Shown: one piece after another, positions 10,972-55,362 of the stretch
Layout of the letters: each line of letters starts with the position of its first letter
Position numbering within the stretch: position 1 is the first letter of the stretch
NCBI GenBank assembly: GCA_964545975.1
Contig: CAZJHY010000001.1
Span: forward strand, 24,094 to 88,093
DNA length: 64,000 bases
Reading direction: 5' to 3'
DNA from: an uncultured Clostridia bacterium
Lineage (GTDB): Bacteria; Bacillota; DTU025; MWDF01
The notes under the pieces: generated by a model
Databases searched by the model: none
Seen by the model: the letters and a program-made list of their open reading frames with translations, nothing else
What the model was told of the DNA's origin: nothing
Translations under genes and position numbers: made by a program

Positions 10972-11065
10972 GGGATAACCTCCTCGATGTTAACATGTTA
11001 GACGATTAAATTGTATCAAATACAAACGGCATGTCAACATCATCCAAGGGGCTCTCCTTGATTTT

Positions 11066-13162: not shown

Positions 13163-13180
13163 TCTCATAGAAGTCCTGCT

Positions 13181-13210
13181 ATGGAGCCCTGTCGCAAGAC
13201 GGGGCTCCAT
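13181..13210 (+). other. GC-rich intercistronic hairpin after SBP gene
   Basis: ATGGAGCCC (loop 12) GGGCTCCAT, 9 bp perfect stem. Confidence 0.5.
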
Positions 13211-13231
13211 GCACCCAAGGGGGCGTTATTT

Positions 13232-16696: not shown

Positions 16697-16727
16697 GGAT
16701 TAGCAGAAAGAAAAAGGAGGAACACCA

Positions 16728-17537: not shown

Positions 17538-17619
17538 CATCACACCGATTGGGGGTGCGGCCGGGAGGCAGGTCCAAGGGGGCGCGGGCCTCCGAAGACA
17601 GCCAACCCGGCCTTGTCAT

Positions 17620-18843: not shown

Positions 18844-18875
18844 GCAGGGCCAGAAGCCTCACAAGGAGGATTCCG

Positions 18876-20132: not shown

Positions 20133-20169
20133 GGGCCGCCCGAATGATGACCGTATGGAGGTAAAGCAG

Positions 20170-20793: not shown

Positions 20794-20822
20794 GACGAAG
20801 ACAATCCGAACGGAGTGATCAT

Positions 20823-22075: not shown

Positions 22076-22104
22076 GGCAAGGCTTACGAAGGCGGTGTGA
22101 TGCA

Positions 22105-22776: not shown

Positions 22777-22798
22777 TCCTAAAAAGGAGGACGCACCA

Positions 22799-24271: not shown

Positions 24272-24275
24272 TGAT

Positions 24276-39245: not shown

Positions 39246-39279
39246 GAGCCCCGTTCAAGATACTGAGAACGAAAGCTTA

Positions 39280-39311
39280 CCGGCCCTCCTAAGCAGGGCC
39301 GGTTTCTTGTT
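39280..39311 (+). terminator. rho-independent terminator
   Basis: CCGGCCCT CCTAAGC AGGGCCGG followed by TTTCTTGTT. Confidence 0.75.
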
Positions 39312-39590
39312 AAGATCGCACAAGATTTTCCCTTGGTAGGACCAAGGCGGGAAGCTTTCTGCGATCAAGCAGTCAAATGATTGTTGTAATCGCCAGCGCG
39401 CGGCCTTCAGGCTATTTAAGTGCAGATATATGAAGTTGACTGAAATGAGTCTGGAATAATTGTTTGCTGATATGAGTATGTGAAATAAATATTTATGTTT
39501 GAGAAGCGCGAAATATGGTGTAGGATTTAGTTGGTTGTCATACCATCATACAAAGCAAGCCTAAATGCTAATGAAGGTTATGGTGGAACG

Positions 39591-40286
39591 ATGAGGATAC
39601 AGCCAATAGAACGTAGTACCCTGCCGGATGCCATTATCGAGCGGATTAAAGGAATGATCATCGACGGGAATCTCAAACCCGGCGACAAGCTCCCTCCCGA
39701 AAGGGATCTGGCTGCCAGCATGCAAGTAGGGAGAGCCACTGTAAGGGAGGCTCTAAAGGCGTTATCTTCAATCGGTCTCCTGCAAAGAAGCACCGAAGGG
39801 ACATATATAAAAGAGAAGATCGAGTACTTCCAGCAACCTCTTACATACAGCCTAATAATGGACCACATAACGCTCAAGGAGCTAATCGAGGCTAGAAGGA
39901 TACTTGAAGTCAAGATTTCTGAATTGGCAGCATTAAGGGCTACTGACGAAGAAATCGCTGGCATAGAAGATGCTGTTATGATACAGAAGATGCACCCGAG
40001 AGATACAGATTACCTCTTCTATGAGGCCGACTTGAAGTTTCATCTGACATTAGCAGCTGCTGCAAAGAATAGGGTTCTCAGCGAGACCATTGTCTGTACA
40101 AGGCATTTGTTGTTTAAGGCGCAGCAGGCAGTGGGTAAACTCCCGGGAATGACAGATAAAGCCCTAGTTAGTCATTCAGCCCTCTTGGAAGCAATCAAGA
40201 GCAAAGATGCCGAGAAGGCCAGAAGCGTAATGGAAGATCATATAGATGACGTGGAAGAAGGCTTCAGGAAGCTCAACTTGATTTAG
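39591..40286 (+). CDS. GntR family transcriptional regulator (FadR/FCD subfamily)
   Basis: N-terminal wHTH (ERDLAASMQVGRATVREALKAL) plus C-terminal all-helical FCD-like domain. Confidence 0.8.
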   Translation: MRIQPIERSTLPDAIIERIKGMIIDGNLKPGDKLPPERDLAASMQVGRATVREALKALSSIGLLQRSTEGTYIKEKIEYFQQPLTYSLIMDHITLKELIEARRILEVKISELAALRATDEEIAGIEDAVMIQKMHPRDTDYLFYEADLKFHLTLAAAAKNRVLSETIVCTRHLLFKAQQAVGKLPGMTDKALVSHSALLEAIKSKDAEKARSVMEDHIDDVEEGFRKLNLI

Positions 40287-40482
40287 TTGGCGATTGGCCT
40301 TCTTTTCTATTTGGGTTCATCATTGGTAGGACAATGCGACCATTGGCAATCGCTACAAAAAAGCCATGACTGATGCTGAAGCATAATGAAAATGCTAAGA
40401 CTATTGCGAGTAGCGAGATACCATTAATAGCAATAGATAGGGGCAAGAACCGAACATTCCATCTTGTTAGGAGGAATATCAG

Positions 40483-41451
40483 ATGAGTGGGATCAAGAAA
40501 GTGCTCGTTACAGACTACGTATTCCCCAACTTAGATCCGGAGAAGGCGATCATTGGAGCTGCTGGCGGAGAAGTCATATTCGCCGGAAAAGACGCCGATG
40601 ATGCCAAGATCTTGGAGCTTGCCAAGGACGCGGATGCAATCCTCAACTGCTACAAGAAGATACCTGCCGAGCTTTACTCAACTGCAAGTAAGTGCAAGCT
40701 CATCGTAAGATACGGCATCGGCACAGACACCATAGACATCCCAGAGGCCACGAAGCACCATATTGCGGTGAGCAATATGCCCGACTATTGCATAGACGAG
40801 GTTTCAGACCACGCTTTGACACTCATACTAAGCAGCATAAGGAAGATCACCACTGCCAACAAGCTTATCAAGAGCGGAACTTGGAGCCTCGGTCCTTTGA
40901 AGCCGATAAGAAGACTTAAGACCCTCACGCTTGGTTTGCACGGCTTCGGCCGCATCCCGAGGATGGTAGCTGAGAAGGCGAAGTCATTCGGGTTTAAGAT
41001 CATCGCCTGCGATCCGTACATTAGCAAGGAGTTGGCCGATAAGATGGGAGTCCAGACGGTAAGCTTCGATGAGCTTTGCGCAATGTCGGACGTCATATCG
41101 ATACATGCCCCCCTTACGAAGGAGACCAGCGAGATATTCAACGGAGAAGCTTTTGCAAAGATGAAAGACGGTGTAGTGATAGTTAACACAGCAAGAGGCG
41201 GGCTTATAAAAGAAGCCGACCTGGTTGAGGCACTTAAGTCTGGCAAAGTCGGGGCTGCTGGCTTAGACGTAACCAATCCCGAGCCACCGGCAAAGAACAA
41301 TCCGCTATTCGACTTCGATAATGTGACCTTCACACCGCATGAGGCATGGTATAGCGAGGAAGCGTTGGTAGAGCTACAGAACAAGGCAGCTGGCGAAATT
41401 GCCCGCTCACTTAAGGGAGAACCTCTCAAGTACCAACTCAATAAGCTCTAG
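40483..41451 (+). CDS. D-isomer-specific 2-hydroxyacid dehydrogenase (PGDH/CtBP-like)
   Basis: NAD-binding GLHGFGRIPRM, catalytic R...E...H triad region (TPHEAW). Confidence 0.8.
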   Translation: MSGIKKVLVTDYVFPNLDPEKAIIGAAGGEVIFAGKDADDAKILELAKDADAILNCYKKIPAELYSTASKCKLIVRYGIGTDTIDIPEATKHHIAVSNMPDYCIDEVSDHALTLILSSIRKITTANKLIKSGTWSLGPLKPIRRLKTLTLGLHGFGRIPRMVAEKAKSFGFKIIACDPYISKELADKMGVQTVSFDELCAMSDVISIHAPLTKETSEIFNGEAFAKMKDGVVIVNTARGGLIKEADLVEALKSGKVGAAGLDVTNPEPPAKNNPLFDFDNVTFTPHEAWYSEEALVELQNKAAGEIARSLKGEPLKYQLNKL

Positions 41452-41462: not shown

Positions 41463-42677
41463 ATGTATAAGACTGCCTGGAGAATTGCGCCTAGGGAGTA
41501 TCCCGGGGTGCCCAATATTAGAGAGGCCGTCAAAGAAGCTCTAAGGAAGCCTTTGGGGATTGGCCTTGCTGAACTGGTCAAGCCTGGCAACAAAGTAGCG
41601 ATTGCCGTGGATGATCTTACCAGGCCTACACCACAGGCGGAGCTTCTACCCGTCATCCTAGATGAGCTGGCAATGCTGGGCATCGACGAAAAGGACATAA
41701 CAATTATCATCGGGCTCGGTGCGCACAGGCGCATGAGCAAGGCAGAGATCGAGACCCGTTTCGGGGCTGCAGCGCAGAGGGTAGGCGCAATAATCAACCA
41801 CGATGTGGAAGACTGTATAGCGATAGGAAGGACCTCAACGGGTGGCGATATTGCCGTTAATAGGATTTTCTGTGAGGCTGATGCCAAAATTGCGGTTGGT
41901 TGCATTCTGCCCCACATATATGCGGGGTGGAGCGGCGGCGCAAAAATGATTCAACCTGGAATATCCAGCGTGAAGACCACAACGCACGTACACAGAATTG
42001 CCAATTTGCACCTTTACGAGATACTCGGCAATACCGAGAACCTCGTGAGAATTGAAATGGAACAGATAGCAGCACTTGCTGGTCTGAAATTCATTATCAA
42101 TGTCGTGCTCAATGACAAAAACGAAGTTATCGCCGTCGTCGCTGGGGACACAGTGGAGGCTCACAGGAAGGGCGTCGGCAAAGCCGAGAAGGTTTACGGT
42201 TGGAACGGCTTGAAACCCGTGGACGTAGCGGTAGCGTACGCACCTGGTGTAGCAACAGACCTCTGGCAAAGCGCAAAGAGCCTTACGGTCGGTGCGATGG
42301 CAATCAAGCAGGGTGGAACTGTGGTGCTAGTCGCAGCCTGCCCCGAGGGGATTGCGCCTGGGCACCCGATAATAAAGGAATTGGGAACAGCCTCTTTCGA
42401 AGAGGTGCTGTACAAGGTAGATAATGGGCTCTTGGAAGATACGGTAGGGGCGTTGGTCCATATGACCATAGCCAAATGCCGGGAAAAAGGCAGGGTGATA
42501 CTAGTGTCATCCGGCATATCAAAACAAGAGGCAACCTGTCTGGGAATGGAGTCAGCAGCCGATGTGGAAGAGGCATTGAGAATGGCCGTCAGCCGTTACA
42601 ATGTTGCGCCTGAGGTCGGCTTCATAGAGTGCGCTGGCGAGTTGTCTATTTCAATTAAGGAGGAATACTGCAAATGA
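41463..42677 (+). CDS. LarA-like (lactate racemase family, DUF2088) 2-hydroxyacid racemase/epimerase
   Basis: N-terminal DUF2088-like organisation, GLGAHRRM His motif, WSGGAKM lysine region, HVH; ~400 aa. Confidence 0.65.
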   Translation: MYKTAWRIAPREYPGVPNIREAVKEALRKPLGIGLAELVKPGNKVAIAVDDLTRPTPQAELLPVILDELAMLGIDEKDITIIIGLGAHRRMSKAEIETRFGAAAQRVGAIINHDVEDCIAIGRTSTGGDIAVNRIFCEADAKIAVGCILPHIYAGWSGGAKMIQPGISSVKTTTHVHRIANLHLYEILGNTENLVRIEMEQIAALAGLKFIINVVLNDKNEVIAVVAGDTVEAHRKGVGKAEKVYGWNGLKPVDVAVAYAPGVATDLWQSAKSLTVGAMAIKQGGTVVLVAACPEGIAPGHPIIKELGTASFEEVLYKVDNGLLEDTVGALVHMTIAKCREKGRVILVSSGISKQEATCLGMESAADVEEALRMAVSRYNVAPEVGFIECAGELSISIKEEYCK

Positions 42678-43924
42678 GCGAATGGAAAAAGGAAGAGCTA
42701 AACGGCAAACCTTGGTTCGACAATGAGAAATTCTGGGGATCCCCGCATAACTACTCGCCCAGTATCACGAAGCTTCTACCTAAGAGCGTCTATATCCATG
42801 ACGTGACTCTCCGGGACGGCGAGCAGACCCCGGGAGTGGCATTCAAAGCTGACGAAAGAATAGTTATCGCCGAAGCCCTTAACGAATTGGGAGTGGCGAG
42901 AATCGAAGCCGGGATGCCCATAGTCTCCAAGGATATCGCCAACGGCATAAAGAAGCTCGTCAATATGAACCTCAAGTCGCAGGTAGTCGCCTTCGCCAGA
43001 GCACATAAGGACGACATCAATGCCTCTCTCGACTGTGGTGTTAAGGCAATCGTAGTAGAGCATACAGTAAACCCGTACCTTTGCAGATGGGGCTATGACC
43101 TCACAGAGGACAAGGTAATCGAGAGGCTCATCACCAGCGTCAGGATGGCTAAGGACAATGGTCTGCATACAACGTTCATGGGTTGGGACTTCTTCAGAGC
43201 CCCGCTCGATTTCTCCAAGAAGATCTACACAGAAGTAGTCAAGAACGCACATCCCGACGCCCTTACATTAGTAGACACCCTCGGCGTTGCCACACCGGCA
43301 GCAGTCCAGGAGACCTTCGTCGAGTTCAGGAAGATGTTCCCCGATATGGTGCTTGAGTTCCACGTGCATAACGACTATGGTATGGCAGTAGGCGCAGTCC
43401 TCGCAGCAGTGATTGGCGGCGCAAACGGCATCCACACCGCAATGAACGGCATAGGCGAGAGGACCGGCAACGTTGCGACAGAGGAAGTCTGTATGGCCCT
43501 TGAAATGCTCTGGGGCATAAAGACCGGCGTAGACACCACCAAGTTCATGTATGTCAGCAAGATAGTGGAGGAGATCTCCAAGTTCAAGCTCGCCAAGAAC
43601 AAGCCCATAGTCGGCGAACACCTCTTCGATATCGAATCCGGCGTTGTTACCCATATCGTCAACGAGATGAATAAGCAGGGCTTCAAGCCTGTTATGACAC
43701 CGTTCACACCCGAAATGGTTAATCAGAAGCCCGTCCGTTTCGTCCTTGGCAAGGGATCAGGAAAGGTCACCATTCTACAGCATTTGGACAAGCTTGGTAT
43801 CAAGTGCACTGATGAGCAGGCAGACGAGATAACCGAAGAAGTCAAGGCCTACGGAAGAGTCATGAAGGCTCTACTCAGCGATGACGACCTCGTAAGAATA
43901 ACTAAGCGCATCCTGGCAAAGTAA
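42674..43924 (+). CDS. HMGL-like (pyruvate carboxyltransferase/DRE-TIM) family aldolase/synthase
   Basis: DVTLRDGEQ, FHVHNDYGMA, LVDTLG motifs. Confidence 0.75.
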   Translation: MSEWKKEELNGKPWFDNEKFWGSPHNYSPSITKLLPKSVYIHDVTLRDGEQTPGVAFKADERIVIAEALNELGVARIEAGMPIVSKDIANGIKKLVNMNLKSQVVAFARAHKDDINASLDCGVKAIVVEHTVNPYLCRWGYDLTEDKVIERLITSVRMAKDNGLHTTFMGWDFFRAPLDFSKKIYTEVVKNAHPDALTLVDTLGVATPAAVQETFVEFRKMFPDMVLEFHVHNDYGMAVGAVLAAVIGGANGIHTAMNGIGERTGNVATEEVCMALEMLWGIKTGVDTTKFMYVSKIVEEISKFKLAKNKPIVGEHLFDIESGVVTHIVNEMNKQGFKPVMTPFTPEMVNQKPVRFVLGKGSGKVTILQHLDKLGIKCTDEQADEITEEVKAYGRVMKALLSDDDLVRITKRILAK

Positions 43925-43959: not shown

Positions 43960-45099
43960 ATGAAGCTGAACAGAATTCTAGTTGCATTCTCAATCCTGGC
44001 GCTAATGATGGTAGCGACAGTAGGAGCAGCAGCTCCGAAGACTTACAAAATCGCCCATCTATCGCCACTGACCGGCTCCGCATCATCCTACGGCTACTAC
44101 ATGGTAAACGCCGCCAAGATGGCCGTTGAGGAAATCAACGCCAAAGGTGGAGTCAACGGAGTAATGCTGGAGTACATGGAAATCGATGAGACTTCCAACT
44201 CGGCTCAAGCCATTGACGCAGCTTACAAGGCAGTCGCATGGGATCCGCTAGTAATACTAGGCCCCAACCGCTCCGGCGGTGTACTTGCCGCAGAGTTCGT
44301 ATGGAAAGAGGCCAAGATCCCCACAATAACCGACGGAACGAGCGCTGAGACAACTAGGAAGGGCAACCCCTATACTTTCAGGATGCAGATCTCCTCTGAG
44401 TATTGGATCCCGTTGCTCGTCCGTACGGCCGTTGAAGTATACAAGTCGAAGAAGATTGCCGTCATGTACGGCCTCAATGACTATTCCAAGGCCAACTGGG
44501 TTGCCACTGAACCCGCGATGAAGAAGTACGGCATCACCCCAGTAACGGTTCAGACGTTCAACGACGGCGACCAGGACTTCACAGCCCAGCTGCTGAAGGT
44601 AAAGGCCTCCGGCGCCGATGCTCTGTTCGTATACTCCTACACGCCTGAAATCGGCATGATCCTCAAGCAGAGGGCCGAGCTTGGTATGCCTAACCTGCTC
44701 GTATTCAGCGAGCGCGCGGCAAGCGTCCCCTCAGTTGAGGACCTCGCTGGCACCAAGAACTATGAGGGTCTCGTCTGCACAACCACCCTGTCCCCCGGAG
44801 ACCCAAGGCCAGGCGTGCAGAAGTTCATTAAGGACTACGAAGCCAAGTATAAGCACATCGTATCCTCGACGCATATCAATCACTACGACTCCGTATACAT
44901 CGTAGCTGACATTATCAAGAGGGTCGGTCCCGACCGTGAGAAGATCAGGCAGGAACTCGCCAAGCTGGATTACGTAGGCGTACTAGGCCACTATGTAGCC
45001 GATAAGGAAGGCAACTTCGTACACACCATGTACACCCAGGTCCGCGAGAACGGCAAGTGGAAGCTGCTCTTGACGGAGGAGTATCCGGTAGTAAGGTAG
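43960..45099 (+). CDS. ABC transporter substrate-binding protein, LivJ/LivK family
   Basis: signal peptide; type I PBP. Confidence 0.8.
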   Translation: MKLNRILVAFSILALMMVATVGAAAPKTYKIAHLSPLTGSASSYGYYMVNAAKMAVEEINAKGGVNGVMLEYMEIDETSNSAQAIDAAYKAVAWDPLVILGPNRSGGVLAAEFVWKEAKIPTITDGTSAETTRKGNPYTFRMQISSEYWIPLLVRTAVEVYKSKKIAVMYGLNDYSKANWVATEPAMKKYGITPVTVQTFNDGDQDFTAQLLKVKASGADALFVYSYTPEIGMILKQRAELGMPNLLVFSERAASVPSVEDLAGTKNYEGLVCTTTLSPGDPRPGVQKFIKDYEAKYKHIVSSTHINHYDSVYIVADIIKRVGPDREKIRQELAKLDYVGVLGHYVADKEGNFVHTMYTQVRENGKWKLLLTEEYPVVR

Positions 45100-45137: not shown

Positions 45138-45169
45138 TAACCTTGCTTATCGTAAGGAGGCTTAAGCCC

Positions 45170-46057
45170 TTGAACCTCACAACTTTGATTCAATTGGTTA
45201 TCAACGGACTGGCCATGGGCCTTCTCTATGCGCTTCCCGCGCTGGGCATCTCCCTTATCTGGAACGCCTCCGGGCTTTTCAACTTCGCTCAAGGGGACCT
45301 GCTTACATTTGGGGCATACATCATGCTATCGCTCTTCAGCAAAGTGGGCCTGCCTTACGTGCTGTCCTTCCTGCTCACATTTCTGCTTTTGGGTTCGATA
45401 GGCTACATACTCAGCTCAATCTACTTCTACCCGATGTTCCGGGCTAGGATAAACCCCCAGATCATACTAATAGGCACGGTCGCCCTTTCTGTATTCATAA
45501 GGAATGCGATCCTTCTAATCTGGGGCCCCCATGCTCAGTCCTACCAGAACCCGTTCGGCTCGTCCGCCATCCAGTTTGGCGAGGTATATGTCATGCCGCA
45601 CATTTTCGGCATATTCATAATAGTCACCCTGCTGTTGGGCGCTTTACAGCTGTTCCTCAGGGGCACGATCACAGGCATCGGCATGAGGGCGGTCGCCCAA
45701 AGGCCCGTAGCCTCGTCTCTGATGGGAATAAAGAACAACAGGATGGTGGCCCTCACATTCTTCATGTCGACAGGCATAGCTGCTGTGTCAGGCATATTGA
45801 TCGCCCCAATACTTCCTCTGACGCCTGAAACCGGCGGCATGATAGCCATCAAGGCCTTCGCTGCGGTACTTATCGGAGGCCTGGGAAGCTTCTCAGGAGC
45901 GCTCGTAGGAGGCATAGCCGTCGGCATAACCGAGATGGTTTTTGCCACCTTGCTGGCTCCGACCTACAAGGACGTCTTCATATTCATAGTCCTTGCGATA
46001 TTCCTGGTATTAAGGCCCGGCGGCATATTCAGGGCCCAGATATCAGAGAAAGTGTAG
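45170..46057 (+). CDS. ABC transporter permease, LivH family
   Basis: TTG start after AGGAGG; LivH-like N-terminus LVINGLAMGLLYAL. Confidence 0.75.
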   Translation: MNLTTLIQLVINGLAMGLLYALPALGISLIWNASGLFNFAQGDLLTFGAYIMLSLFSKVGLPYVLSFLLTFLLLGSIGYILSSIYFYPMFRARINPQIILIGTVALSVFIRNAILLIWGPHAQSYQNPFGSSAIQFGEVYVMPHIFGIFIIVTLLLGALQLFLRGTITGIGMRAVAQRPVASSLMGIKNNRMVALTFFMSTGIAAVSGILIAPILPLTPETGGMIAIKAFAAVLIGGLGSFSGALVGGIAVGITEMVFATLLAPTYKDVFIFIVLAIFLVLRPGGIFRAQISEKV

Positions 46058-46067
46058 GAGGGGTCAC

Positions 46068-47021
46068 ATGCGTGCAGTGTTAAAGTTTTTGAAGGACAAA
46101 GCATTCTTCGCCCTGGCGCTGTTCCTTGTGATCGCACCTTATGTGATGCAGCGCTACCAGTTCTACATCCTGCAGCGCGGGGTGCAGAACTCGATACATG
46201 TGCTGGGCTTGGTCATACTAGTAGGCTTCACGGGCCTTCTGTCATTGGGTCATGCGGGCTTCGTGGCGCTGGGGGCCTACGCCTACGGGATTGCAATGGT
46301 GAAGCTGGGGCTTCCTGTATGGGCGGCGCTCATTATAGCGCCCCTATTCTCTATGCTCATCAGCATGTTGCTGGCATATCCTTCCTTCAAGCTATCGGGC
46401 CCGTTCCTAGTGGTTATCACGATAGCCTTCGGCGAGATAGTGAGGATATTGATACTTAACCTGCAGGGCATCACAGGAGGTCCTTACGGACTGACGGGGT
46501 ACAAAGTGCTCTTCACAAACTCCAAGGTGCTCTACTACGTCATGCTCGGAACATTGTTCCTGCTTGCCCTGTTTGTTCGGAGGCTCGGCAACTCCAGAAT
46601 CGGACTTGCTTTCAAGGCAATCAAGGAGGACGAGGTCGCAGCAGACGTCATGGGCGTAAACGTCAGGAAGCACAAGCTCATGGCATTCATGCTAAGCTCG
46701 GCGCTGGCCGGCCTTTCAGGCGTGTTCCTTGCGAGCCTTACAAGGTACATCAACCCAGACTCGTTCACGTTCGCGGAGAGCTCGACCTACCTTCTGATGG
46801 TGGTCATGGGCGGTATGCAGAATGTGTTCGGCGCGATAACCTCGACCATAGTCATCACAGCGCTCCCTGAGGTGTTGAGGTTCCTTGCGCGCAGCAGGCT
46901 GCTTATATACTCACTAACGCTTCTGGTATATCTCAGGATGTACGGCAACAAGGGCGGCCTACTGCAGATGTTCGGCATTAAGCCCAAGAAGGCGAATATA
47001 AATACAGGTTCGAGGAGCTGA
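46068..47021 (+). CDS. ABC transporter permease, LivM family
   Basis: multi-TM. Confidence 0.75.
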   Translation: MRAVLKFLKDKAFFALALFLVIAPYVMQRYQFYILQRGVQNSIHVLGLVILVGFTGLLSLGHAGFVALGAYAYGIAMVKLGLPVWAALIIAPLFSMLISMLLAYPSFKLSGPFLVVITIAFGEIVRILILNLQGITGGPYGLTGYKVLFTNSKVLYYVMLGTLFLLALFVRRLGNSRIGLAFKAIKEDEVAADVMGVNVRKHKLMAFMLSSALAGLSGVFLASLTRYINPDSFTFAESSTYLLMVVMGGMQNVFGAITSTIVITALPEVLRFLARSRLLIYSLTLLVYLRMYGNKGGLLQMFGIKPKKANINTGSRS

Positions 47022-47025
47022 GACT

Positions 47026-47808
47026 ATGGAACTACTAAGGACTGAGGGCATAGTCAGGAAGTTCGGCGGCCTTGTGGCTGTCAGCGAACTTTGCGTGAAC
47101 GTCAACGAGGGCGAGATAGTGGCACTTATCGGTCCCAACGGTTCAGGAAAGACCACAGCCCTGAACCTCATCACGGGCATCTACTCATGCGATGAGGGAA
47201 AGATACTGCTGAAGGGCCAGGAGATCCAGAGCGCGGCCCCCTTCTCGATAACGCAGAAGGGAATAGCCAGGACCTTCCAGAACATAAGGATACTCGAGTC
47301 CCTCTCCGTTTTCGACAACGCGAGGCTTGGAACCATATTCTCCACGAAGTCCAACCTGCTGGACATCGCCCTTGAGACGCCAAGGTTCAGAAGGGAGAAG
47401 AAGGCGGTGACAGAGGAGGTCAACAAGGTCCTGGATTTCGTGGGACTTCTGGACCAGGCGAATGAGATTGCCGCCAACTTGCCTTACGGCAAGAAGAGGG
47501 CGCTTGAGATCGCAAGGGCGCTTGTAACGAAGCCCAACCTGCTTCTTCTGGACGAGCCCGCGGCTGGTCTGAATACGCAGGAAGTCTACAACCTAATGGA
47601 GCTCATTAAGAAGATAAGAGGCCTTGGCATCACCATATTCCTGGTAGAGCATAGGATGGAGCTAGTCGGCGGCCTCGCTGACAGGGTCTACGTGCTCAAC
47701 TACGGCAAAAAGATCTGCGAGGGCCCGTTCTGCGACATCAAAGAGGACACCTCCGTCATCGAGGCGTATCTCGGCAAGAGGAGGCAGGTCGATGCTAAAG
47801 GTAGATAA
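47026..47808 (+). CDS. ABC transporter ATP-binding protein, LivG family
   Basis: GPNGSGKTT, LLLDEPAAGL. Confidence 0.85.
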   Translation: MELLRTEGIVRKFGGLVAVSELCVNVNEGEIVALIGPNGSGKTTALNLITGIYSCDEGKILLKGQEIQSAAPFSITQKGIARTFQNIRILESLSVFDNARLGTIFSTKSNLLDIALETPRFRREKKAVTEEVNKVLDFVGLLDQANEIAANLPYGKKRALEIARALVTKPNLLLLDEPAAGLNTQEVYNLMELIKKIRGLGITIFLVEHRMELVGGLADRVYVLNYGKKICEGPFCDIKEDTSVIEAYLGKRRQVDAKGR

Positions 47809-48517
47809 GGTCGTAGTCGCCTACGGCGTAGCCCCGGTAATCCATGAAGTCTCGCTTACCGTCCCCGACGGCAAGATCGTAACGCTCCTCGGTGCCAACG
47901 GCGCCGGCAAGTCTACGATACTGAAGACCATATCCGGCCTCTTGAAGCCCATAAGCGGAGAGGTAACATTCGACGGAGCGGTAATATCAAAGGAGCCGCC
48001 CGAAGCGATAGTAAAAAGAGGTATAGCTCACGTTCCGGAGGGAAGGCTCGTGTTCCCCGGGCTCACTGTGCTTGAGAACCTGAAGATGGGATCCTACGTG
48101 ATAAGGCACAAGCGGAAGAACCTCAAAGAGAACTTAGAAAAGGTGTATGAGCTGTTCCCCAGGCTACTTGAGAGGAAGAACCAGACCGCCGGTACGCTAT
48201 CAGGCGGAGAGCAGCAGATGCTCGCCATCGGCAGGGGCCTCATGAGCGAGCCTAAGCTTCTTATGCTTGACGAGCCGTCGCTGGGGCTTGCTCCCGTAAT
48301 CATCGACAGCATCATCGACAAGATAATCGAGATCAACAAGCAGGGGATGACCATCCTCCTGATAGAGCAGAACGCGCATCTGGCCCTTGAAGTCTGCGAC
48401 TATGGTTACTTGCTTTCTGTCGGCAACATAATGATGCACGGCGAGAAGCAGAAGCTGGTGAGCGAAGAGGGCATGATTAATGCCTATCTGGGCGGAGGCA
48501 AGCAGGAGGCCGTCTGA
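47792..48517 (+). CDS. ABC transporter ATP-binding protein, LivF family
   Basis: GANGAGKST, LSGGEQQML, LMLDEPS. Confidence 0.85.
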   Translation: MLKVDKVVVAYGVAPVIHEVSLTVPDGKIVTLLGANGAGKSTILKTISGLLKPISGEVTFDGAVISKEPPEAIVKRGIAHVPEGRLVFPGLTVLENLKMGSYVIRHKRKNLKENLEKVYELFPRLLERKNQTAGTLSGGEQQMLAIGRGLMSEPKLLMLDEPSLGLAPVIIDSIIDKIIEINKQGMTILLIEQNAHLALEVCDYGYLLSVGNIMMHGEKQKLVSEEGMINAYLGGGKQEAV

Positions 48518-49704
48518 TGAAGATCCTTATATGCAATGTGGGTAGCACTTCATTGAAGTACCGCCTGTTCGAGGACACTGCATGGGAATGCATATCAAAG
48601 GGCAAGGTGGAGAGGATCGGCAGCGATAGCTCCACCTTCCAGTTTTCATTGCTCAATGGGGCAGTCCAAAGCGGCACAGTCGCGATAACGGACTATGAGT
48701 CCGCGATATCCCTGATGCTAGAGCACCTGGTGGGGGCTGCAGCTCCGCTAAAAAGCCTGGAAGAGCTGTCTGCCGTAGGCTTCAAGGTAGTGCACGCTAA
48801 GGGCATAACTGGCGTGCAGCTGCTGGATGAGCGGGTCATAAAGGCCATGGAGGACTACAACTCCATAGCGCCTGCGCATAATCCCCCCTATATAAAGGCC
48901 ATTAAGATATTCTCCAAACTTCTTCCCGGAGTGCCGATGGTGGGAAGCTTCGAGACCGGCTTTCATTCCAGGATGCCGAGATGCGCATATCTCTACGGCA
49001 TACCCTATGAGTGGTATGAGAAGTACGGTATAAGAAGGTACGGATTTCACGGGGCATCGCACCAGTACGTATCGGAGAGGATCACGGCGCTTCTCGGTCA
49101 CAGGCCAAAGAGGCTTATTACATGCCACCTTGGCGGAAGCTCATCGCTTTGCGCCATCAAGGACGGCGTATCTATAGATACTAGCCTTGGCTTCTCTCTT
49201 CAAAGCGGCGTCGAGCACCAATACAGGTGCGGGGACATCGATTCATTTATCATGCCGTTTCTTATGAAAAGCGCAGGTATGAGCGAGGAAGATATCGAGA
49301 TTGGCATGACGAAGAAGGGCGGCTTAGCCGGAATCTCCGGGCTGTCGGGAGACATAAGGGACCTTGAGGAGGCTTCGGGGGCCGGCAACGACCGCGCCCT
49401 TGCGGCGCTCGAAGTGTTCGCCTATGAGGTGAAGAAATACATAGGGGCATATGCCGCGGCTTTAGGAGGCGCCGATGCCATCTGCTTTGCAGGCGGAATC
49501 GGTGAAAACGGTTCAAAGATGCGCGCAAGGATTCTGAAAGGTATGGAATACCTGGGTATCGAGATAGACGAAACAAAAAATTACGAGCTCAAGGGCGAAG
49601 GGGAGATTTCTGCGCCTGAATCCAAAGTGAAGGTCTTCATAATCCCGACCGATGAAGAGCAGATAGTAGCTAAGCTAACAATAAACCTTGTAAAAGGGGC
49701 ATAG
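48517..49704 (+). CDS. acetate/propionate/butyrate kinase family protein
   Basis: N-terminal ILICNVGSTSLKY ASKHA motif; ~395 aa; start overlaps LivF stop (TGATGA). Confidence 0.75.
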   Translation: MKILICNVGSTSLKYRLFEDTAWECISKGKVERIGSDSSTFQFSLLNGAVQSGTVAITDYESAISLMLEHLVGAAAPLKSLEELSAVGFKVVHAKGITGVQLLDERVIKAMEDYNSIAPAHNPPYIKAIKIFSKLLPGVPMVGSFETGFHSRMPRCAYLYGIPYEWYEKYGIRRYGFHGASHQYVSERITALLGHRPKRLITCHLGGSSSLCAIKDGVSIDTSLGFSLQSGVEHQYRCGDIDSFIMPFLMKSAGMSEEDIEIGMTKKGGLAGISGLSGDIRDLEEASGAGNDRALAALEVFAYEVKKYIGAYAAALGGADAICFAGGIGENGSKMRARILKGMEYLGIEIDETKNYELKGEGEISAPESKVKVFIIPTDEEQIVAKLTINLVKGA

Positions 49705-50023: not shown

Positions 50024-51196
50024 ATGAATCAAAATACAAACCAGTTCATGGGGTACCTCAGGGAGAACGGCACAGTCGGCGTTAGGAACTACGTTTTAAT
50101 CCTACCTACCGTAGTTTGCGCCAATGCCACTGCAAGATCGATTGCTTCCATGGTGCCGGGCAGCACCGTTGTAACTCACCAGCACGGTTGTGCCCAGCTA
50201 GGAGCGGATTTTGCGCAGACACAAAGGACGCTTATTGGCTTAGGAAAGAACCCTAATGTCAGATCTGTACTTGTTGTGGGGCTCGGCTGCGAGAACATGG
50301 AAGGTGAGGTTGTCGCGGTTTCAATTGCAACAACTGGCAAGAAAGTAGAGCTCATCACCATACAGAAGCTTGGCGGCACATTGAAGGCAACCGAGCTGGG
50401 AGTTCGCATCGCATCTGAGATGATGCGATCAAAGTCAACCGACTTAAGGGTCCCAGTAGGAATAGAGAAGCTTACGCTCGCACTCGAGTGCGGGGCCTCT
50501 GATTCGACTTCGGGAATAACAGCTAACCCCGCAACCGGGATTGCTGTGGATATGCTTGTCGAAAAGGGAGGCTCAGCCATACTCTCAGAGACTCCGGAAA
50601 TGATAGGAGCGGAACACATTCTGGCCAAGAGATGCTTCTCGATAGTAGTTAAAGACGCCTTGTACGGTATTATCGGAGATGCTGAGAGGGGCATAAGTGG
50701 CATGGGCGTAGACGTTAGAGGCTCGAATCCGACACCTGGGAATATTGCAGGTGGCTTAAGCAGCATAGAGGAGAAGTCCCTTGGTTGCATCTACAAGGCT
50801 GGGTCTGGCAAGATAATGCAGGTAGTCAGATATGCCGAGACACCCACCGAGAAGGGTCTTGTTATAATGGACACACCAGGTCATGATGTAGAATCGATGA
50901 CAGGGATGGCTGCAGGTGGTGCTCAGGTTTGCGTTTTCACGACCGGCCTTGGCGCAGTAACAGGATTTCCTATAATGCCTGTCATCAAGGTATGCGGCAA
51001 TCCTAGGACAAGCGCCTTCATAAGCGATAACATTGATATCGACGCGGGCCAAGTGCTAGATGGCAAGGCTAGCCTCCAGCAGGTGGCGGAGCAGATTTTA
51101 TGCGAGGTCATGGAAGTCTCGTCGGGCAAAGCCACCAAGGCTGAGAGCCTCGGATATGCAGACATCGCGATTAACAGAATCGGCCCTACTACATGA
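50024..51196 (+). CDS. large subunit of split UxaA/GarD/SuyB-like (altronate dehydratase family) dehydratase/lyase
   Basis: ~390 aa; GD_AH_C-like pattern; 4-bp gap to small subunit. Confidence 0.6.
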   Translation: MNQNTNQFMGYLRENGTVGVRNYVLILPTVVCANATARSIASMVPGSTVVTHQHGCAQLGADFAQTQRTLIGLGKNPNVRSVLVVGLGCENMEGEVVAVSIATTGKKVELITIQKLGGTLKATELGVRIASEMMRSKSTDLRVPVGIEKLTLALECGASDSTSGITANPATGIAVDMLVEKGGSAILSETPEMIGAEHILAKRCFSIVVKDALYGIIGDAERGISGMGVDVRGSNPTPGNIAGGLSSIEEKSLGCIYKAGSGKIMQVVRYAETPTEKGLVIMDTPGHDVESMTGMAAGGAQVCVFTTGLGAVTGFPIMPVIKVCGNPRTSAFISDNIDIDAGQVLDGKASLQQVAEQILCEVMEVSSGKATKAESLGYADIAINRIGPTT

Positions 51197-52215
51197 TTGT
51201 AGATAAGGAAATGAGGGATTCTTCGGAAAGGTACAGAATGCAGAAGTTCAAGAAATGGGTCGAAGAGAACGGCTTGAGGTTCGCTTTCTTCAGAAGCTGC
51301 GATATCGACATGGCGGTGTCTAGGGTACGCAACCTTGCTCCTGCCATAGACCAGGTGATCTTCAATAGGTATTTCGAAAGCTTCAAGACGTCTGGCGAGC
51401 TTGGGCTTTCAGCGGAAGAGCTGGCTCTCATTATCTACATCCCCAAGGAAGTCCGCACTGTTCAGTTCGAACTCTGCGATAAACGATATGAGGCGAGCAT
51501 CCCACCGCCCATATACTGCGATGAACCTTCCGATATCGATGAGTTCGACAAGGCGGTGAACGATAGGCTCGACGGTAAAGCAAGACCAGTAAGATTGCCC
51601 ATGAAATCATTGAGCGTGCTGCTTGGCATCTCACGCTATGGCAGGAACAACATCACCTATATCGATGGATTAGGAAGCCTTTTCATCATGCGATCTTATG
51701 CGGTGAAGGGGCTTGATGAGAACGATATCGAAATCAGCAAGCCGCTGGGTGGGTTCATCGATGAGGACTTGCAATGCCCGGAGTGCGATGGCTGTTTCGC
51801 ATGTATTGCCTCATGCCCTACAGGCGCTATCTCAAACGATCGTTTCCTATTGCATGCTGAGAGGTGTATGACCTACCATAACAAGAATGACAAGGAATTT
51901 CCAGCATGGATTGACGGAAGCTCTCACAATTGCATCTTCGGATGCCTTCAATGCCAAGTCTGCTGCCCGATGGATTTTGGCAAGCTAATCAAGAAGCCAT
52001 CGGGAGTAGTTTTCGATGAAGATGAGACCAGGTACCTTGTAGGAATCCACGAGACTTCTGAAGTCAAGGCCATCGAGGCAGGAATTGAAAGTAAGCTCGC
52101 AAAACTGGGCATAGCATATCTGAGAGAGTTGATGCCAAGAAACCTAAGAGCCCTCTTCGCAAGCGGGAATCTTATAAACACGGAGCCAAAGTTGGAGGAA
52201 ACTGATGCCAAGTAA
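51193..52215 (+). CDS. QueG-like (epoxyqueuosine reductase/reductive-dehalogenase-like) 4Fe-4S protein
   Basis: LGISRYGRNNITYIDGLGS...CPECDGCFACIASCPTGAI matches QueG cluster region; second CxxCxxCC site. Confidence 0.5.
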   Translation: MIVDKEMRDSSERYRMQKFKKWVEENGLRFAFFRSCDIDMAVSRVRNLAPAIDQVIFNRYFESFKTSGELGLSAEELALIIYIPKEVRTVQFELCDKRYEASIPPPIYCDEPSDIDEFDKAVNDRLDGKARPVRLPMKSLSVLLGISRYGRNNITYIDGLGSLFIMRSYAVKGLDENDIEISKPLGGFIDEDLQCPECDGCFACIASCPTGAISNDRFLLHAERCMTYHNKNDKEFPAWIDGSSHNCIFGCLQCQVCCPMDFGKLIKKPSGVVFDEDETRYLVGIHETSEVKAIEAGIESKLAKLGIAYLRELMPRNLRALFASGNLINTEPKLEETDAK

Positions 52216-53095
52216 AAGAAGTCAACAACTTCTAGGCTACCTTTTCATAATGTTCACTGGGGTGATGTTCGGCTCGTTGGAAGTCGCTTCCAAGCTTGTG
52301 CCCCATATAAACCCATTCCAGATGAACTTCGTTCGTTTTTTGATCGGAGGGCTAGTCATCATACCGTTCGCATTGTACGAAGTTAGATCCAGGAAGCTCA
52401 AAGTAAGCTTCGGAGATATCGTCTATTCAGGGTTCCTGGGGTTGATCTTGGTCGGTTTCTCCATGACGCTCATGCAGGTAGGAATATCGAAAGTGCCTGC
52501 ACCTCAGGTAGCTTTTATATTCGCCTCTAACCCGATAATCATCGCTGTGCTCGCGGCCTTCATATTAAAGGAGAAGCCGGGGTTGTTCACCTTCATATTC
52601 ATAGCACTGGGCATGACAGGCATAGTGTTCATTGTCGACCCCTTCCAGAAATCATTCAACCTGGACGTGTTATACCCTATAGCGGCTGTGACCCTTATGG
52701 GGACCTATATAGTGCTTGCTAGGAAGCTGTCCATGAGGCTTGGAAGCCTATATGTAACTGGTACGGCGATAATCCTGGGAACAATAGGATTAGGCATATT
52801 CAACCTGATTATCGGAAAGGGGTTATTCTCTGACATAAGGCCTGCGGATGTTCCTATCGTTTTCTTCATGGGGGCGTTCATCTCAGGGCTTGCGTACGTT
52901 ACCTATTTCAAGGGTATGGAGTTCATTAACACGAGCACGGGCAGCATTACATTCTTTTTAAAGGCCATAACTGCGACTGTACTATCCATATTGGTACTGA
53001 AGGATACCCCTGCGTTGTCCACGTACATAGGTGCAGCTTTCATCTTGGCCGGTACCGTGGTCCTAATAATCTCAAACAACCGTGCAGTTCGGTAA
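52205..53095 (+). CDS. DMT superfamily (EamA) transporter
   Basis: 10-TM EamA pattern; overlaps upstream gene. Confidence 0.75.
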   Translation: MPSKRSQQLLGYLFIMFTGVMFGSLEVASKLVPHINPFQMNFVRFLIGGLVIIPFALYEVRSRKLKVSFGDIVYSGFLGLILVGFSMTLMQVGISKVPAPQVAFIFASNPIIIAVLAAFILKEKPGLFTFIFIALGMTGIVFIVDPFQKSFNLDVLYPIAAVTLMGTYIVLARKLSMRLGSLYVTGTAIILGTIGLGIFNLIIGKGLFSDIRPADVPIVFFMGAFISGLAYVTYFKGMEFINTSTGSITFFLKAITATVLSILVLKDTPALSTYIGAAFILAGTVVLIISNNRAVR

Positions 53096-53145: not shown

Positions 53146-53331
53146 ATGCCAATCATCGAGGTTAAGGTGCTTGAAGGTAAGTCCATCGAGCAGAAGCGCA
53201 AGGTGGCGGAAGGAATTACTCAGGTGTGCATAAACGAGTTCGGTGTAGCTCCAGATGCGGTAAGGGTAATCTTCACGATTATGAGGAAGGAAGACTTTGC
53301 GGTCGCTGGAAAGCTTAGAAGCGACAGCTAG
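53146..53331 (+). CDS. 4-oxalocrotonate tautomerase family protein
   Basis: 61 aa starting MPIIEVK (Pro1 catalytic base). Confidence 0.75.
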   Translation: MPIIEVKVLEGKSIEQKRKVAEGITQVCINEFGVAPDAVRVIFTIMRKEDFAVAGKLRSDS

Positions 53332-53525: not shown

Positions 53526-53608
53526 CTTCGCTTATGCAGACGCTGCCTCCTTTGCATATTCTGAGTGCGCCTCTATGTCCACTTAGGGGGGATCATATCA
53601 ACCCGCCC

Positions 53609-54487
53609 CTACCTTTCCTGTTTTACTTGTTCATAACGCACTTCCACCTGATAATAGGACCTTATGTGCCGAAAGCCGCAGGCGATTGCGGTCCTGAAAG
53701 AAGGGGTGTTATCGGAGTAGCAGTTCCAGCCAACTTTCTGCATGCCATGGTCGCTGCACTCCACGAGGAACCTGTCTGTAAGGGCTTTGGCTATGCCGCG
53801 CCCTCTGTGATCTTCCAGGACTTCTATCCCTATCTCGCATCCGACCGAACACATATACTCGCTCAGGCACCATCCGGCCAGAGCGTTTCCGTGAATCGCA
53901 GCAACTCCCAGGAAACCGTCGGATTTCTTTGTCATGCTGTCGAAGCGGTAAGCGCATTCAGATCTGAGAAGGTCAATATCCGATATCGTGTCGTCTCTCA
54001 ATAGGTCATTTTCGACATCTGCGAAGCGGTAGCCCTCGATTAGAGGGTGAGGCATCGATTCGAAAGGCAGGGAAGCCTCAAGATACTCCCTGCCCCGTGC
54101 AGTATGCGCAATTCCCTTCAGCATCCCCGACAGGGCGTCACCGATGGTTCGGTCGAATGCCCGCACGATCGCCCTGTCATGGGCGTGCCCCTCGAGCTTT
54201 CGCAAGGACACCTCTTTTCTGACGAACTTTCCGAGGAAATCTGCGTCCTGCTGTGTGTTTATTGATCCGGCCAGGTAGAGCTTGTTCTCAAACCTTATCG
54301 CCCCGAAACGAGGGTTCTCTTCGTCGTCCACCCAGGCATCGCAATCTTTTATCCCCTCAAGCACCGCAACAAGGCGGACTATCCGGGAGCTGTCCCCGAG
54401 CAGTTCGATTACCTGCCTTATAGTTTTCCTTCGGAAATGCATCTTCTGCCTCCGCGCCTGAAAAGGGCTTTGGCAACCACGCCCCAT
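53609..54487 (-). CDS. GNAT family N-acetyltransferase with N-terminal extra domain
   Basis: C-terminal GNAT motif RGRGIAKAL and acetyl-CoA site. Confidence 0.65.
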   Translation of the reverse strand: MGRGCQSPFQARRQKMHFRRKTIRQVIELLGDSSRIVRLVAVLEGIKDCDAWVDDEENPRFGAIRFENKLYLAGSINTQQDADFLGKFVRKEVSLRKLEGHAHDRAIVRAFDRTIGDALSGMLKGIAHTARGREYLEASLPFESMPHPLIEGYRFADVENDLLRDDTISDIDLLRSECAYRFDSMTKKSDGFLGVAAIHGNALAGWCLSEYMCSVGCEIGIEVLEDHRGRGIAKALTDRFLVECSDHGMQKVGWNCYSDNTPSFRTAIACGFRHIRSYYQVEVRYEQVKQER

Positions 54488-54590: not shown

Positions 54591-55016
54591 CTACTTGGCA
54601 GGCATATCGGGCCTCTCAAGCTCACCATAGGCCTTAAGAAGGATGCCTATCTGACCTGAGAGCCTCTCCATGCGCCTCATCCAGGAAGCTAGCTGGACCA
54701 TGCCCTCTTCGCTAAGCATGTAGACCCGCCTTGCCGGACCTGTGCCGCTTGTGTCCCACTCGGAGTAGGTGAAACCCATCATGTCCATCCTTCTGAGGGT
54801 GCGATAGACAGCTGCCTGATCCATCTCAGTGTCTGCAACAGATAGCCTGGATGCCTCCTGGGCTATCTGGTACCCGTGCGCCTTTCCCAGCTTTGCAAGG
54901 GCTATGGCGACTACAGGCACCATGAACCTGAACATCTTGCCGAGCCCGTGTCCCTCCATGCCCCCCTCAATGCCGCGCATCCTGCCCAACCCGAAACCGC
55001 CTCTTGCTCCGTGCAT
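54591..55016 (-). CDS. PadR family transcriptional regulator
   Basis: GYQIAQ...YRTLRRM...RRVYMLSEEG wHTH; Gly-rich N-terminus; true start may be Met at 54935. Confidence 0.7.
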   Translation of the reverse strand: MHGARGGFGLGRMRGIEGGMEGHGLGKMFRFMVPVVAIALAKLGKAHGYQIAQEASRLSVADTEMDQAAVYRTLRRMDMMGFTYSEWDTSGTGPARRVYMLSEEGMVQLASWMRRMERLSGQIGILLKAYGELERPDMPAK

Positions 55017-55143: not shown

Positions 55144-55362
55144 ATGATTGAGATAAGGGGCAGGGTTCCCCTCGAGAAGTACTCCGGTTTCTTACCAGTC
55201 TCTTCTGACACAAAGGTAAGGCAGCTCTTCGACATCCTCGGCATCCCCGAGGATCTCAGAGGTTACATACTTGCCATAAGAAACGGCAAGATAATCCAGC
55301 ACAGCGACATTGTTGCGGACGGAAGCGCAATCGATCTGATTATTATCCCCGAGGGCGGTTGA
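55144..55362 (+). CDS. ThiS/MoaD-like ubiquitin-fold small protein ending in Gly-Gly
   Basis: 72 aa, C-terminal IRNGKII...ADGSAIDLIIIPEGG. Confidence 0.65.
   Translation: MIEIRGRVPLEKYSGFLPVSSDTKVRQLFDILGIPEDLRGYILAIRNGKIIQHSDIVADGSAIDLIIIPEGG

Follow-up and report, generated by a model that had tools for sequence, protein, structure and literature searches.

LarA enzymes depend on nickel-pincer nucleotide (NPN), a cofactor that is made by LarB, LarC and LarE, and act on diverse 2-hydroxy acids. In the survey of Desguin et al. 2020 (Table S1), 354 LarA homologs fall into 25 groups, with gene context taken as three genes on each side: most groups have a substrate-related context of their own, LarB, LarC and LarE are recurrent neighbours in 5 of the 25 (groups 1, 3, 4, 19 and 22), and the MAR1 group of malate racemases (MAR) is 100% associated with COG2721 dehydratases. 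According to Urdiain-Arraiza et al. 2024 (PMC11770544), the catalytic pair of LarA is His108/His174, and specificity can be read from positions F175, F176, W358 and T359, with the signatures F-F-W-E/Q in lactate racemases (LAR), E-V-A-H in GntE, Y-F-H/Q-T in HGR and x-x-H/Q-K in MAR, and with F or Y at the W358 position in racemases of hydrophobic acids; malate racemases also epimerise tartrate, and one or more homologs are mentioned there as epimerising D-arabinarate. Over half of the groups in the superfamily are without a known substrate, and each new LarA activity has widened the chemistry of the nickel-pincer cofactor and given racemases useful in synthesis. Here we describe a larA homolog in a 64,000-nucleotide stretch of contig CAZJHY010000001.1 (the window), from an uncultured Clostridia bacterium, and the operon to which this gene belongs.

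The reading that we favour, with slightly better than even confidence, is that the gene encodes an NPN-dependent 2-hydroxyacid racemase or C2-epimerase of an uncharacterised subgroup, which would perform one step of a co-inherited operon for the import of a hydroxy-carboxylic acid and the formation of pyruvate, with a C4-C6 hydroxy-dicarboxylate as the likeliest substrate. The absence of nearby larB, larC and larE, to which an earlier note on this DNA had drawn attention, is unimportant on its own; the interest lies in a phylum-spanning operon that combines an uncharacterised LarA subgroup with a DRE-TIM enzyme that has apparently switched reaction.

The LarA homolog and its active site

The larA open reading frame (ORF) begins with an ATG at 41463, ends with a stop codon at 42677 and encodes 404 amino acids. 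An in-frame GTG lies two codons upstream of this ATG; we take 41463 as the start because close homologs begin MYKTAW and the exact 404-aa sequence is on record, in an NCBI contig (123,238 bp) that also carries ten other proteins of the window. The next gene, encoding an HMGL-like protein, starts at 42674 inside an ATGA and thus overlaps the end of larA by 4 bp (...AAATGAGCG...), as the earlier note had stated. Both domains of the family are recognised by Pfam, Lar_N (PF09861) at 1.9e-49 (168 bits, cutoff 23.3) and LarA_C (PF21113) at 2.6e-09 (37.6 bits, cutoff 25).

To map the active-site residues, we aligned the protein with solved structures by HMMER and with 18 homologs by MAFFT. The cofactor site of Lactiplantibacillus plantarum LarA (D72, T74, R75, K184 and H200) corresponds to D51, T53, R54, K161 and H177 of the window protein, the catalytic histidines H108 and H174 to H88 and H151, and the substrate carboxylate binders Q295 and K298 to Q269 and K272; Y294 is replaced by W268. 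The nine cofactor and catalytic residues are kept in the window protein, in its clade (P0001-P0007, 55-90% identity) and in a sister group (about 37-44%), and are invariant in an 11-sequence alignment of the LarAs that are associated with the gene module described below; they appear to be under purifying conservation in homologs down to 37% identity. The earlier note had listed His108, His156, Lys184 and His200 as the positions that matter. The equivalents of His108, Lys184 and His200 are conserved, whereas His156 has to be struck from the list, residue 156 of L. plantarum LarA itself being Asn and the catalytic pair being His108/His174.

An AlphaFold2 model built from 89 sequences reached a pLDDT of 96.9 and a pTM of 0.93. 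All 19 matches with E <= 0.001 in a Foldseek search of the PDB are LarA-family structures, and the TM-score is 0.89 to substrate-bound Isosphaera LarA (9EIA_B) and 0.88 to 5HUQ_A. Because the domains, the fold, and the NPN-binding, catalytic and carboxylate-binding residues are all present, the protein has every mark of the LarA superfamily that could be tested and is, judging from sequence and model, a genuine, intact LarA-type nickel-cofactor 2-hydroxy-acid racemase/epimerase. The family assignment made in the earlier note thus holds, with Lar_N and LarA_C found and the NPN site intact.

The search for larBCE in the window covered, with Pfam, 54 chosen ORFs of at least 150 aa, a 95-aa SAF-domain ORF and eight ORFs in or near gaps (seven under 150 aa, and one of 156 aa at 53534-54004). 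Among these, no member of the AIRC (LarB), PF01969 (LarC) or PP-loop ATPase (LarE-type) families was found, in agreement with the earlier note. Nor were larBCE seen in the related module loci, the annotation of which was precomputed Pfam (L001-L014) or no more than partial Pfam (L044, L067 and L085), and they do not recur as neighbours among 13 loci sampled from a neighbouring group of LarA homologs. Across the whole 64 kb, no Rfam family attains its gathering score, so there is no Ni/Co riboswitch, tRNA or other known RNA. Since only five of the 25 published groups list larBCE as neighbours and none were seen in the related loci, a larA gene without them nearby is ordinary: larA homologs as a rule lie apart from larBCE, and the oddity that the earlier note implied disappears. 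That NPN biosynthesis is missing from the genome altogether, leaving a protein that is inactive or uses another cofactor or chemistry, would account for the lack of larB, larC and larE in the 64 kb and in every related locus, but we find it barely credible, given that homologs of 37-90% identity all keep the NPN-binding and catalytic residues, that separation is the published norm, and that the gene sits inside a conserved, translationally coupled operon.

The window protein falls short of every NCBIfam cutoff. The best match is MAR LarAH6 (NF052593, 298.9 bits against a cutoff of 500), followed by LarA lactate racemase (NF033504, 252.4 against 460), MAR LarAH5 (NF052595, 251.1 against 462), LarAH10 (224.9 against 540) and the hexonate epimerase model (47 against 500). 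At the four specificity positions it carries I152, Y153, L331 and V332 in the alignment with 18 homologs, and this I-Y-L-V combination matches none of the LAR, GntE, HGR, MAR and hydrophobic-acid signatures. With all cutoffs missed and I-Y-L-V at the specificity positions, no characterised specificity group fits. The clade is small, comprising seven 90%-identity clusters at 55% identity or more before a drop to 44%, and is, by these sequence measures, a new specificity subgroup within the known LarA family.

The closest of the characterised groups is that of the malate racemases, the largest known class of LarA homologs, and a plain malate racemase would enable the use of both D- and L-malate. 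The best NCBIfam match (LarAH6) and the best PDB match (Mar2, 2.4e-49) both belong to this class; a malic enzyme gene adjoins the module in one related locus (L013); the dehydrogenase encoded next to LarA resembles McyI, which acts on malate and 3-methylmalate; and the MAR1 group is always found beside a COG2721 dehydratase. We nevertheless consider this assignment unlikely, because the scores are far below the equivalog cutoffs (299 < 500; 251 < 462), the identity to Mar2 is only 32%, and the His/Gln-Lys signature is lost. In a direct alignment, 'LGAHK' of Mar2 corresponds to 'VGALV' of the window protein, and the other module LarAs read VGALT, VAASV or VAGTV there, so that the positions of Mar2 H350 and K351 hold L/S/T and V/T, respectively, in all of them. 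A second MAFFT alignment, in which helix alpha14 of L. plantarum LarA is shifted by three residues, was rejected as it contradicts the published equivalence of the Mar2 H/K pair with W358/T359.

Several databases name relatives of the protein 'nickel-dependent lactate racemase', and the acetate kinase gene within the operon would suit an enzyme of lactate metabolism. We regard this identity as highly improbable: the score against NF033504 is 252 for a cutoff of 460, the LAR signature is replaced by I-Y-L-V, and the gene context contains no lactate permease, LutABC or lactate dehydrogenase/ETF.

The operon and its relatives in Firmicutes and Chloroflexi

A module of roughly 12 genes for uptake and breakdown is found in about 10 independent loci of Firmicutes and Chloroflexi. 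Its core consists of a GntR/FCD regulator, a D-2-hydroxyacid dehydrogenase, LarA, the HMGL-like protein, a Liv-type ABC transporter, and the SAF and GD_AH proteins, which are the two subunits of a split UxaA/GarD-type dehydratase. The regulator gene is part of every related locus for which the sequence is long enough; in 9 of the 10 module loci the dehydrogenase gene is adjacent to larA or one gene away, and in L044 it is two genes away; and the UxaA/GarD-type dehydratase is present in all loci long enough to show one, except L085. Because larA is co-inherited with both the D-2-hydroxyacid dehydrogenase and the dehydratase, the proposal of the earlier note that LarA sets the stereochemistry for one or the other is the best reading of its role.

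The related loci include Firmicutes metagenome-assembled genomes (MAGs) with LarA identities of 83% (L001), 60% (L007), 56-58% (L002 and L003, one from a biogas fermenter, both with an M20 peptidase upstream and a four-subunit 2-oxoacid:ferredoxin oxidoreductase downstream) and 40-42% (L008 and L009, one a Thermoanaerobacteraceae), an Anaerolineaceae MAG with 37% identity (L013/L014), in which a divergent malic enzyme gene lies beside the regulator gene, and metagenome contigs (L044, L067 and L085). Acetate kinase is encoded within the module in L001, L008, L009 and L067. The L085 variant differs most: in the stretch fetched (1440-13638), two TRAP (DctPQM) systems take the place of the ABC transporter, there are two non-canonical HMGL-like copies, an HpcH/HpaI-family aldolase gene lies directly upstream of larA, and no Liv-type ABC, SAF or GD_AH genes were found. 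A scan of a genome collection yielded one species representative, MAG CAWGMK01, at 83% identity. COG0111, COG1052, COG0683 and COG0282, which are typical of this module, do not appear in the context table of Desguin et al. 2020, and our literature searches found no paper describing this gene combination.

A far more abundant neighbouring group of LarA homologs (L015-L094, for example L026, L045 and L068), about 40-46% identical and derived from soil and peat metagenomes, made up most of the metagenome scan and served as a negative control. Its context is of a sugar type, with a split transketolase, a xylose-isomerase-like TIM barrel, an Asp/Glu racemase, an MFS transporter, GntR/FCD and TonB-type outer-membrane genes.

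In the window, the genes between 40483 and 53095 are all on the plus strand, with gaps of -17 to +43 bp, which bears out the tightly coupled operon described in the earlier note; their order is D-2-hydroxyacid dehydrogenase, LarA, HMGL-like, LivJ-type, LivH, LivM, LivG, LivF, acetate kinase, SAF, GD_AH, Fer4_16 and EamA (Table 1).

Table 1. Features of the larA operon, with positions in the window
Feature	Position	Strand	Evidence and remarks
GntR/FCD-family regulator	39531-40286	+	Pfam GntR 3.2e-19 and FCD 2.5e-24
Candidate operator TTGGTAGGACAATGCGACCATTGG (TGGT-N11-ACCA), 24 nt	40323-40346	+	Between the regulator and the first enzyme gene
D-isomer-specific 2-hydroxyacid dehydrogenase	40483-41451	+	Pfam 2-Hacid_dh_C 7.6e-57; ends 11 bp before larA
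Predicted LarA-family NPN-dependent 2-hydroxyacid racemase/epimerase, subgroup without a characterised member	41463-42677	+	Lar_N and LarA_C, conserved residues, AlphaFold2 model
Non-canonical DRE-TIM (HMGL-like/HCS_D2) enzyme	42674-43924	+	Pfam HMGL-like 9.7e-60
LivJ-type substrate-binding protein with remodelled polar/cationic pocket	43960-45099	+	Peripla_BP_6 8.2e-54
LivH, LivM, LivG and LivF-type ABC permeases and ATPases	45143-48517	+	BPD_transp_2 (two), ABC_tran (two)
Acetate/propionate-family kinase	48517-49704	+	Pfam Acetate_kinase 4.8e-113; 1-bp overlap between its start and the end of livF
SAF-domain small subunit of split UxaA/GarD-type dehydratase, 95 aa	49733-50020	+	Pfam SAF 6.9e-08
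Large subunit of split UxaA/GarD-type dehydratase, 390 aa	50024-51196	+	GD_AH_second 1.9e-39 and GD_AH_C 1.9e-90
Fer4_16 iron-sulfur protein	51193-52215	+	Operon tail, translationally coupled
EamA-family transporter	52205-53095	+	Operon tail, translationally coupled

A 196-bp spacer separates the regulator gene from the first enzyme gene. It contains a TGGT-N11-ACCA element that occurs only once in the window (chance expectation 0) and is identical in L001, and the core of which, CGACCAT, is also present in L007; we infer that this element is a candidate operator. Apart from one terminator at 39279-39303, our scan for promoters and terminators gave nothing beyond chance. The dehydrogenase falls below all NCBIfam cutoffs and, by sequence, resembles PGDH, McyI and glyoxylate reductases, with PGDH 1ygy (1e-53) and McyI 8wph (4.9e-53) as the best PDB matches, whereas the acetate kinase is readily assigned (TIGR00016, 375.8 bits, above the cutoff of 293.4). 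In the tail of the operon, only Fer4_16 is kept, and only in the closest relative. A 61-aa ORF of the 4-oxalocrotonate tautomerase family (53146-53331; Pfam Tautomerase 4.3e-13), which starts 50 bp after the last operon gene and is not conserved in the related loci examined, could encode an enzyme that ketonises an enol product of the dehydratase.

The HMGL-like protein, which has homocitrate synthase 6KTQ as its best PDB match (3.6e-63) and misses all NCBIfam cutoffs, keeps the residues of the metal and 2-oxoacid site (R47, D48, Q51, D201-T202, H230 and H232). Five of these, R47, D48, T202, H230 and H232, equivalent to Arg89, Asp90, Thr257, His288 and His290 of BjMAMS, are present in all orthologs. 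Three other positions that are essential in BjMAMS have changed: that of Glu227 holds W171 in the window protein and W or I among the orthologs (L001-L003, L007-L009, L013); that of Tyr399 holds K338 in the window protein and K, H, T or A in the seven orthologs aligned, L013 not being scored; and that of the general base His388 holds Val in 5 of 8 orthologs (L002, L003, L008, L009 and L013), whereas in the other three, which form the subclade of the window protein, the sequence is 'ESGVVTH', with a His two residues downstream. The E227A/D, H388A/Q/D/E and Y399S variants of BjMAMS are inactive (PMC11532901). Given the loss of the Glu227 and Tyr399 equivalents, and mostly of that of His388, at positions where BjMAMS variants are inactive, the protein is probably not an acetyl-CoA condensing synthase but a lyase or decarboxylase that forms pyruvate. 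It more likely works through pyruvate-enolate chemistry, either decarboxylating a beta-keto acid or acting as an aldolase on a 4-hydroxy-2-oxoacid.

The binding protein is the best-conserved component of the module, with 61-98% identity where LarA has 37-83%, and its orthogroup is sharply bounded (at least 51% identity, then 35%). In comparison with mature E. coli LivJ, it keeps Y18, S79, T102, Y150, Y202 and E226, which we take to be the alpha-carboxylate/alpha-ammonium clamp of LivJ/LivK, and it carries the changes L77N, C78R, A100D, G227R and F276T, all invariant in seven orthologs. Because the pocket is polar, with two invariant arginines, the predicted ligand is an acidic or polyhydroxylated compound, not Leu, Ile or Val.

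These two proteins bear directly on the idea, suggested by automatic annotation, that LarA is a branched-chain 2-hydroxyacid racemase (acting on 2-hydroxyisovalerate or 2-hydroxyisocaproate imported through a 'branched-chain amino acid' transporter) that feeds an 'isopropylmalate synthase'. The source names and the Pfam labels agree with it, the LarA specificity positions are hydrophobic, and a VOR-like four-subunit oxidoreductase is encoded in L002 and L003. However, the binding pocket is polar and cationic (N, R, D, R and T in place of L, C, A, G and F), the 'synthase' lacks residues required in IPMS/MAMS, LarA does not have the F or Y that the published rule places at the W358 position, and a pathway of this kind does not account for the GarD-type dehydratase, the malic enzyme, the TRAP systems or the HpcH aldolase. 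We accordingly dropped this idea, which the binding-pocket and HMGL-residue analyses contradict and which we now view as quite improbable.

The SAF ORF, which lies 3 bp upstream of the GD_AH gene, fills an apparent 320-bp gap after the acetate kinase gene and is missed by lists of ORFs of at least 150 aa. It matches the N-terminal part of galactarate dehydratase (TIGR03248, 2.9e-11) and has orthologs in L002, L003, L008, L009, L013 and L067. The GD_AH protein has GarD 6u7l as its best PDB match (2.1e-45), and its orthologs in the module loci are 52-90% identical; galactarate dehydratase is thus the best match of the dehydratase in both the PDB and NCBIfam. The names of the dehydratase homologs are all generic and give no functional clue.

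A different outcome would follow if the SAF and large subunits formed a SuyAB-type sulfo-lyase that yields pyruvate and sulfite, with LarA as a 3-sulfolactate racemase of a cysteate/sulfolactate pathway, in which it would turn the enantiomer produced by the D-specific dehydrogenase into the opposite one. SuyAB has the same two-subunit architecture of SAF and large subunit (here 95 aa and 390 aa), the amino-acid clamp and two arginines of the binding protein would suit cysteate, the window, L008 and L009 have DsrE-like and C_GCAxxG_C_C genes close to the module, and pyruvate-processing enzymes are attached. Yet sulfite forms a covalent adduct with NPN (PDB titles 6c1w and 8ezf), so that its release would poison LarA; the conserved core includes no sulfite exporter, sulfite reductase or aminotransferase; the L085 variant, with its HpcH/HpaI aldolase and TRAP systems, does not fit; and none of 120 listed dehydratase homologs bears the name SuyB. 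On balance, we think this pathway improbable.

Candidate pathway and substrate

In the pathway that we propose, a polar anionic hydroxy-carboxylic acid would be imported by the Liv-type ABC transporter with its two-arginine pocket, or by TRAP systems in one variant. LarA would invert C2 of the imported acid or of an early intermediate, so that both stereoisomers could enter the D-specific dehydrogenase and/or the split GarD-type dehydratase. Residue conservation suggests that a hydride would pass from substrate C2 to a Lys-held, His-ligated NPN, with His88 and His151 alternating as base and acid; the cofactor would presumably be supplied by larB, larC and larE elsewhere in the genome. The resulting 2-oxo acid would be cleaved or decarboxylated by the DRE-TIM enzyme to give pyruvate, and pyruvate could then be converted to acetate and ATP, through acetate kinase and, in some loci, a pyruvate-type ferredoxin oxidoreductase, or be linked to malate via malic enzyme in Chloroflexi. 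The enzymes at the edges of the module (acetate kinase, pyruvate-type oxidoreductase or malic enzyme) all process pyruvate, malate or acetyl units.

The most likely class of substrate is a C4-C6 hydroxy-dicarboxylate, of the tartrate or malate type or a pentaric or hexaric acid. In its favour, tartrate is epimerised by MAR-type LarAs, another homolog is mentioned as acting on D-arabinarate, the MAR1 group always adjoins a dehydratase of the present type, and a malic enzyme flanks the Chloroflexi locus. Among the options, tartrate could be converted via oxaloacetate to pyruvate, a pentarate via 4-hydroxy-2-oxoglutarate to pyruvate and glyoxylate, and a hexarate via 5-keto-4-deoxyglucarate to pyruvate and tartronate semialdehyde.

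Several observations weigh against such a substrate or pathway. LarA does not have the His/Gln-Lys pair of malate racemases, and the hydrophobic I152, Y153, L331 and V332 fit a dicarboxylate poorly; the two MAFFT alignments, moreover, place helix alpha14 of L. plantarum LarA differently, so that this stretch is unstable. No larBCE were found in the 64-kb window or the related loci. The role of the DRE-TIM enzyme is deduced solely from the residues that it is missing. The binding protein keeps the Glu of LivJ, which presumably pairs with the alpha-ammonium group, and what is imported could thus be an acidic amino acid. Elsewhere the dehydratase pair is found without LarA, in C. difficile, where it is accompanied by a KdgT permease, and in D. 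meridiei.

A more far-reaching possibility, to which we give clearly less than even weight, is that the module constitutes an undescribed anaerobic pathway for a tartaric/aldaric-type or related acid, in which the dehydratase is the split GarD-type enzyme, the LarA has a new specificity, and a homocitrate-synthase-like DRE-TIM enzyme, having lost its Claisen-condensation residues, was recruited as a pyruvate-forming lyase or decarboxylase. If true, a single operon, found in uncultured Firmicutes and Chloroflexi alike, would hold two new enzyme activities. The operon is unusually informative in that the ligand of one binding protein could assign functions to five uncharacterised enzymes at once, and the labels 'lactate racemase', 'isopropylmalate synthase', 'branched-chain amino acid transporter' and 'altronate dehydratase' would all be in need of correction.

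The window contains other catabolic genes. A second cluster (12152-25673), which encodes a sugar-type ABC transporter, a metallo-beta-lactamase-fold protein, a UPF0261 protein, a RuBisCO-like protein (RLP; 18876-20132), two class II aldolase/adducin-family proteins, RpiB, triosephosphate isomerase, an FGGY kinase and a phosphomutase, is a putative RLP-containing pathway of the acid-sugar type. The region 2606-9868 includes another Liv-type ABC system (4356-8952), with a binding protein that has no equivalents of LivJ Glu226 and Tyr202, and this system is flanked by genes for a 572-aa protein that matches M24 peptidase/creatinase only weakly, a class I/II aminotransferase and a DHDPS-family enzyme. 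A 72-aa ORF at 55144-55362 with a C-terminal Gly-Gly resembles a ThiS/MoaD-type sulfur carrier, has no Pfam match, and adjoins a PadR regulator gene (54591-55016, minus strand).

Comparison with known systems

Lactiplantibacillus plantarum LarA (5HUQ) and the broad-spectrum LarA of Isosphaera pallida (9EIA) share with the window protein the Lar_N and LarA_C domains and TM-scores of 0.88-0.89. The identity to the L. plantarum enzyme is 29%, F-F-W-T of that enzyme corresponds to I-Y-L-V, and its Y294 to Trp; unlike L. plantarum larA, the gene described here lies outside a lar operon, with no LarB, LarC, LarE, LarD or nickel transporter encoded nearby. The malate racemases Mar2/LarAH6 of Thermoanaerobacterium thermosaccharolyticum (PDB 6D6Z/7S91) and Mar1/LarAH5 of Desulfitobacterium hafniense are closer. 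They have the family, fold, and NPN and catalytic residues in common with the window protein, as well as the 'L/V-G-A' backbone motif of helix alpha14; malate racemases are the best matches by Foldseek E-value, as Mar2 is among PDB sequences, and both the Mar1 group and the present clade are tied to a COG2721 (UxaA/GarD-type) dehydratase. The differences, beyond the low overall identity to Mar2, concern the His/Gln-Lys pair, which in malate racemases is assigned to the second carboxylate of malate and is L/S/T and V/T in the present clade, and the context: the published contexts of groups 5 and 6 do not include the D-2-hydroxyacid dehydrogenase, non-canonical DRE-TIM enzyme, Liv-type ABC transporter and acetate kinase that accompany LarA here.

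The DRE-TIM enzyme and the isopropylmalate, homocitrate, citramalate and methylthioalkylmalate synthases have in common the HMGL-like TIM barrel with HCS_D2, the Arg-Asp...His-x-His metal and 2-oxoacid site, and the Asp-Thr motif; in contrast to these synthases, the window protein has neither the LeuA regulatory domain nor equivalents of Glu227 and Tyr399.

At the level of the pathway, the proposed route follows the same logic as the galactarate/glucarate pathway (GarD, GarL, GarR) and the anaerobic fermentation of tartrate via oxaloacetate: a GarD-family enzyme dehydrates a hydroxy-dicarboxylate to a 2-oxo-3-deoxy acid, pyruvate is then formed by C-C cleavage or decarboxylation, and a 2-hydroxyacid/aldehyde reductase takes the second fragment. 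GarL belongs to the HpcH/HpaI family, and the L085 variant carries an aldolase of that family. Compared with the Gar and tartrate routes, the module is predicted to combine a split dehydratase of SAF and large subunits, a DRE-TIM enzyme for the cleavage step, an added NPN-dependent epimerase and uptake through a LivJ-type ABC transporter.

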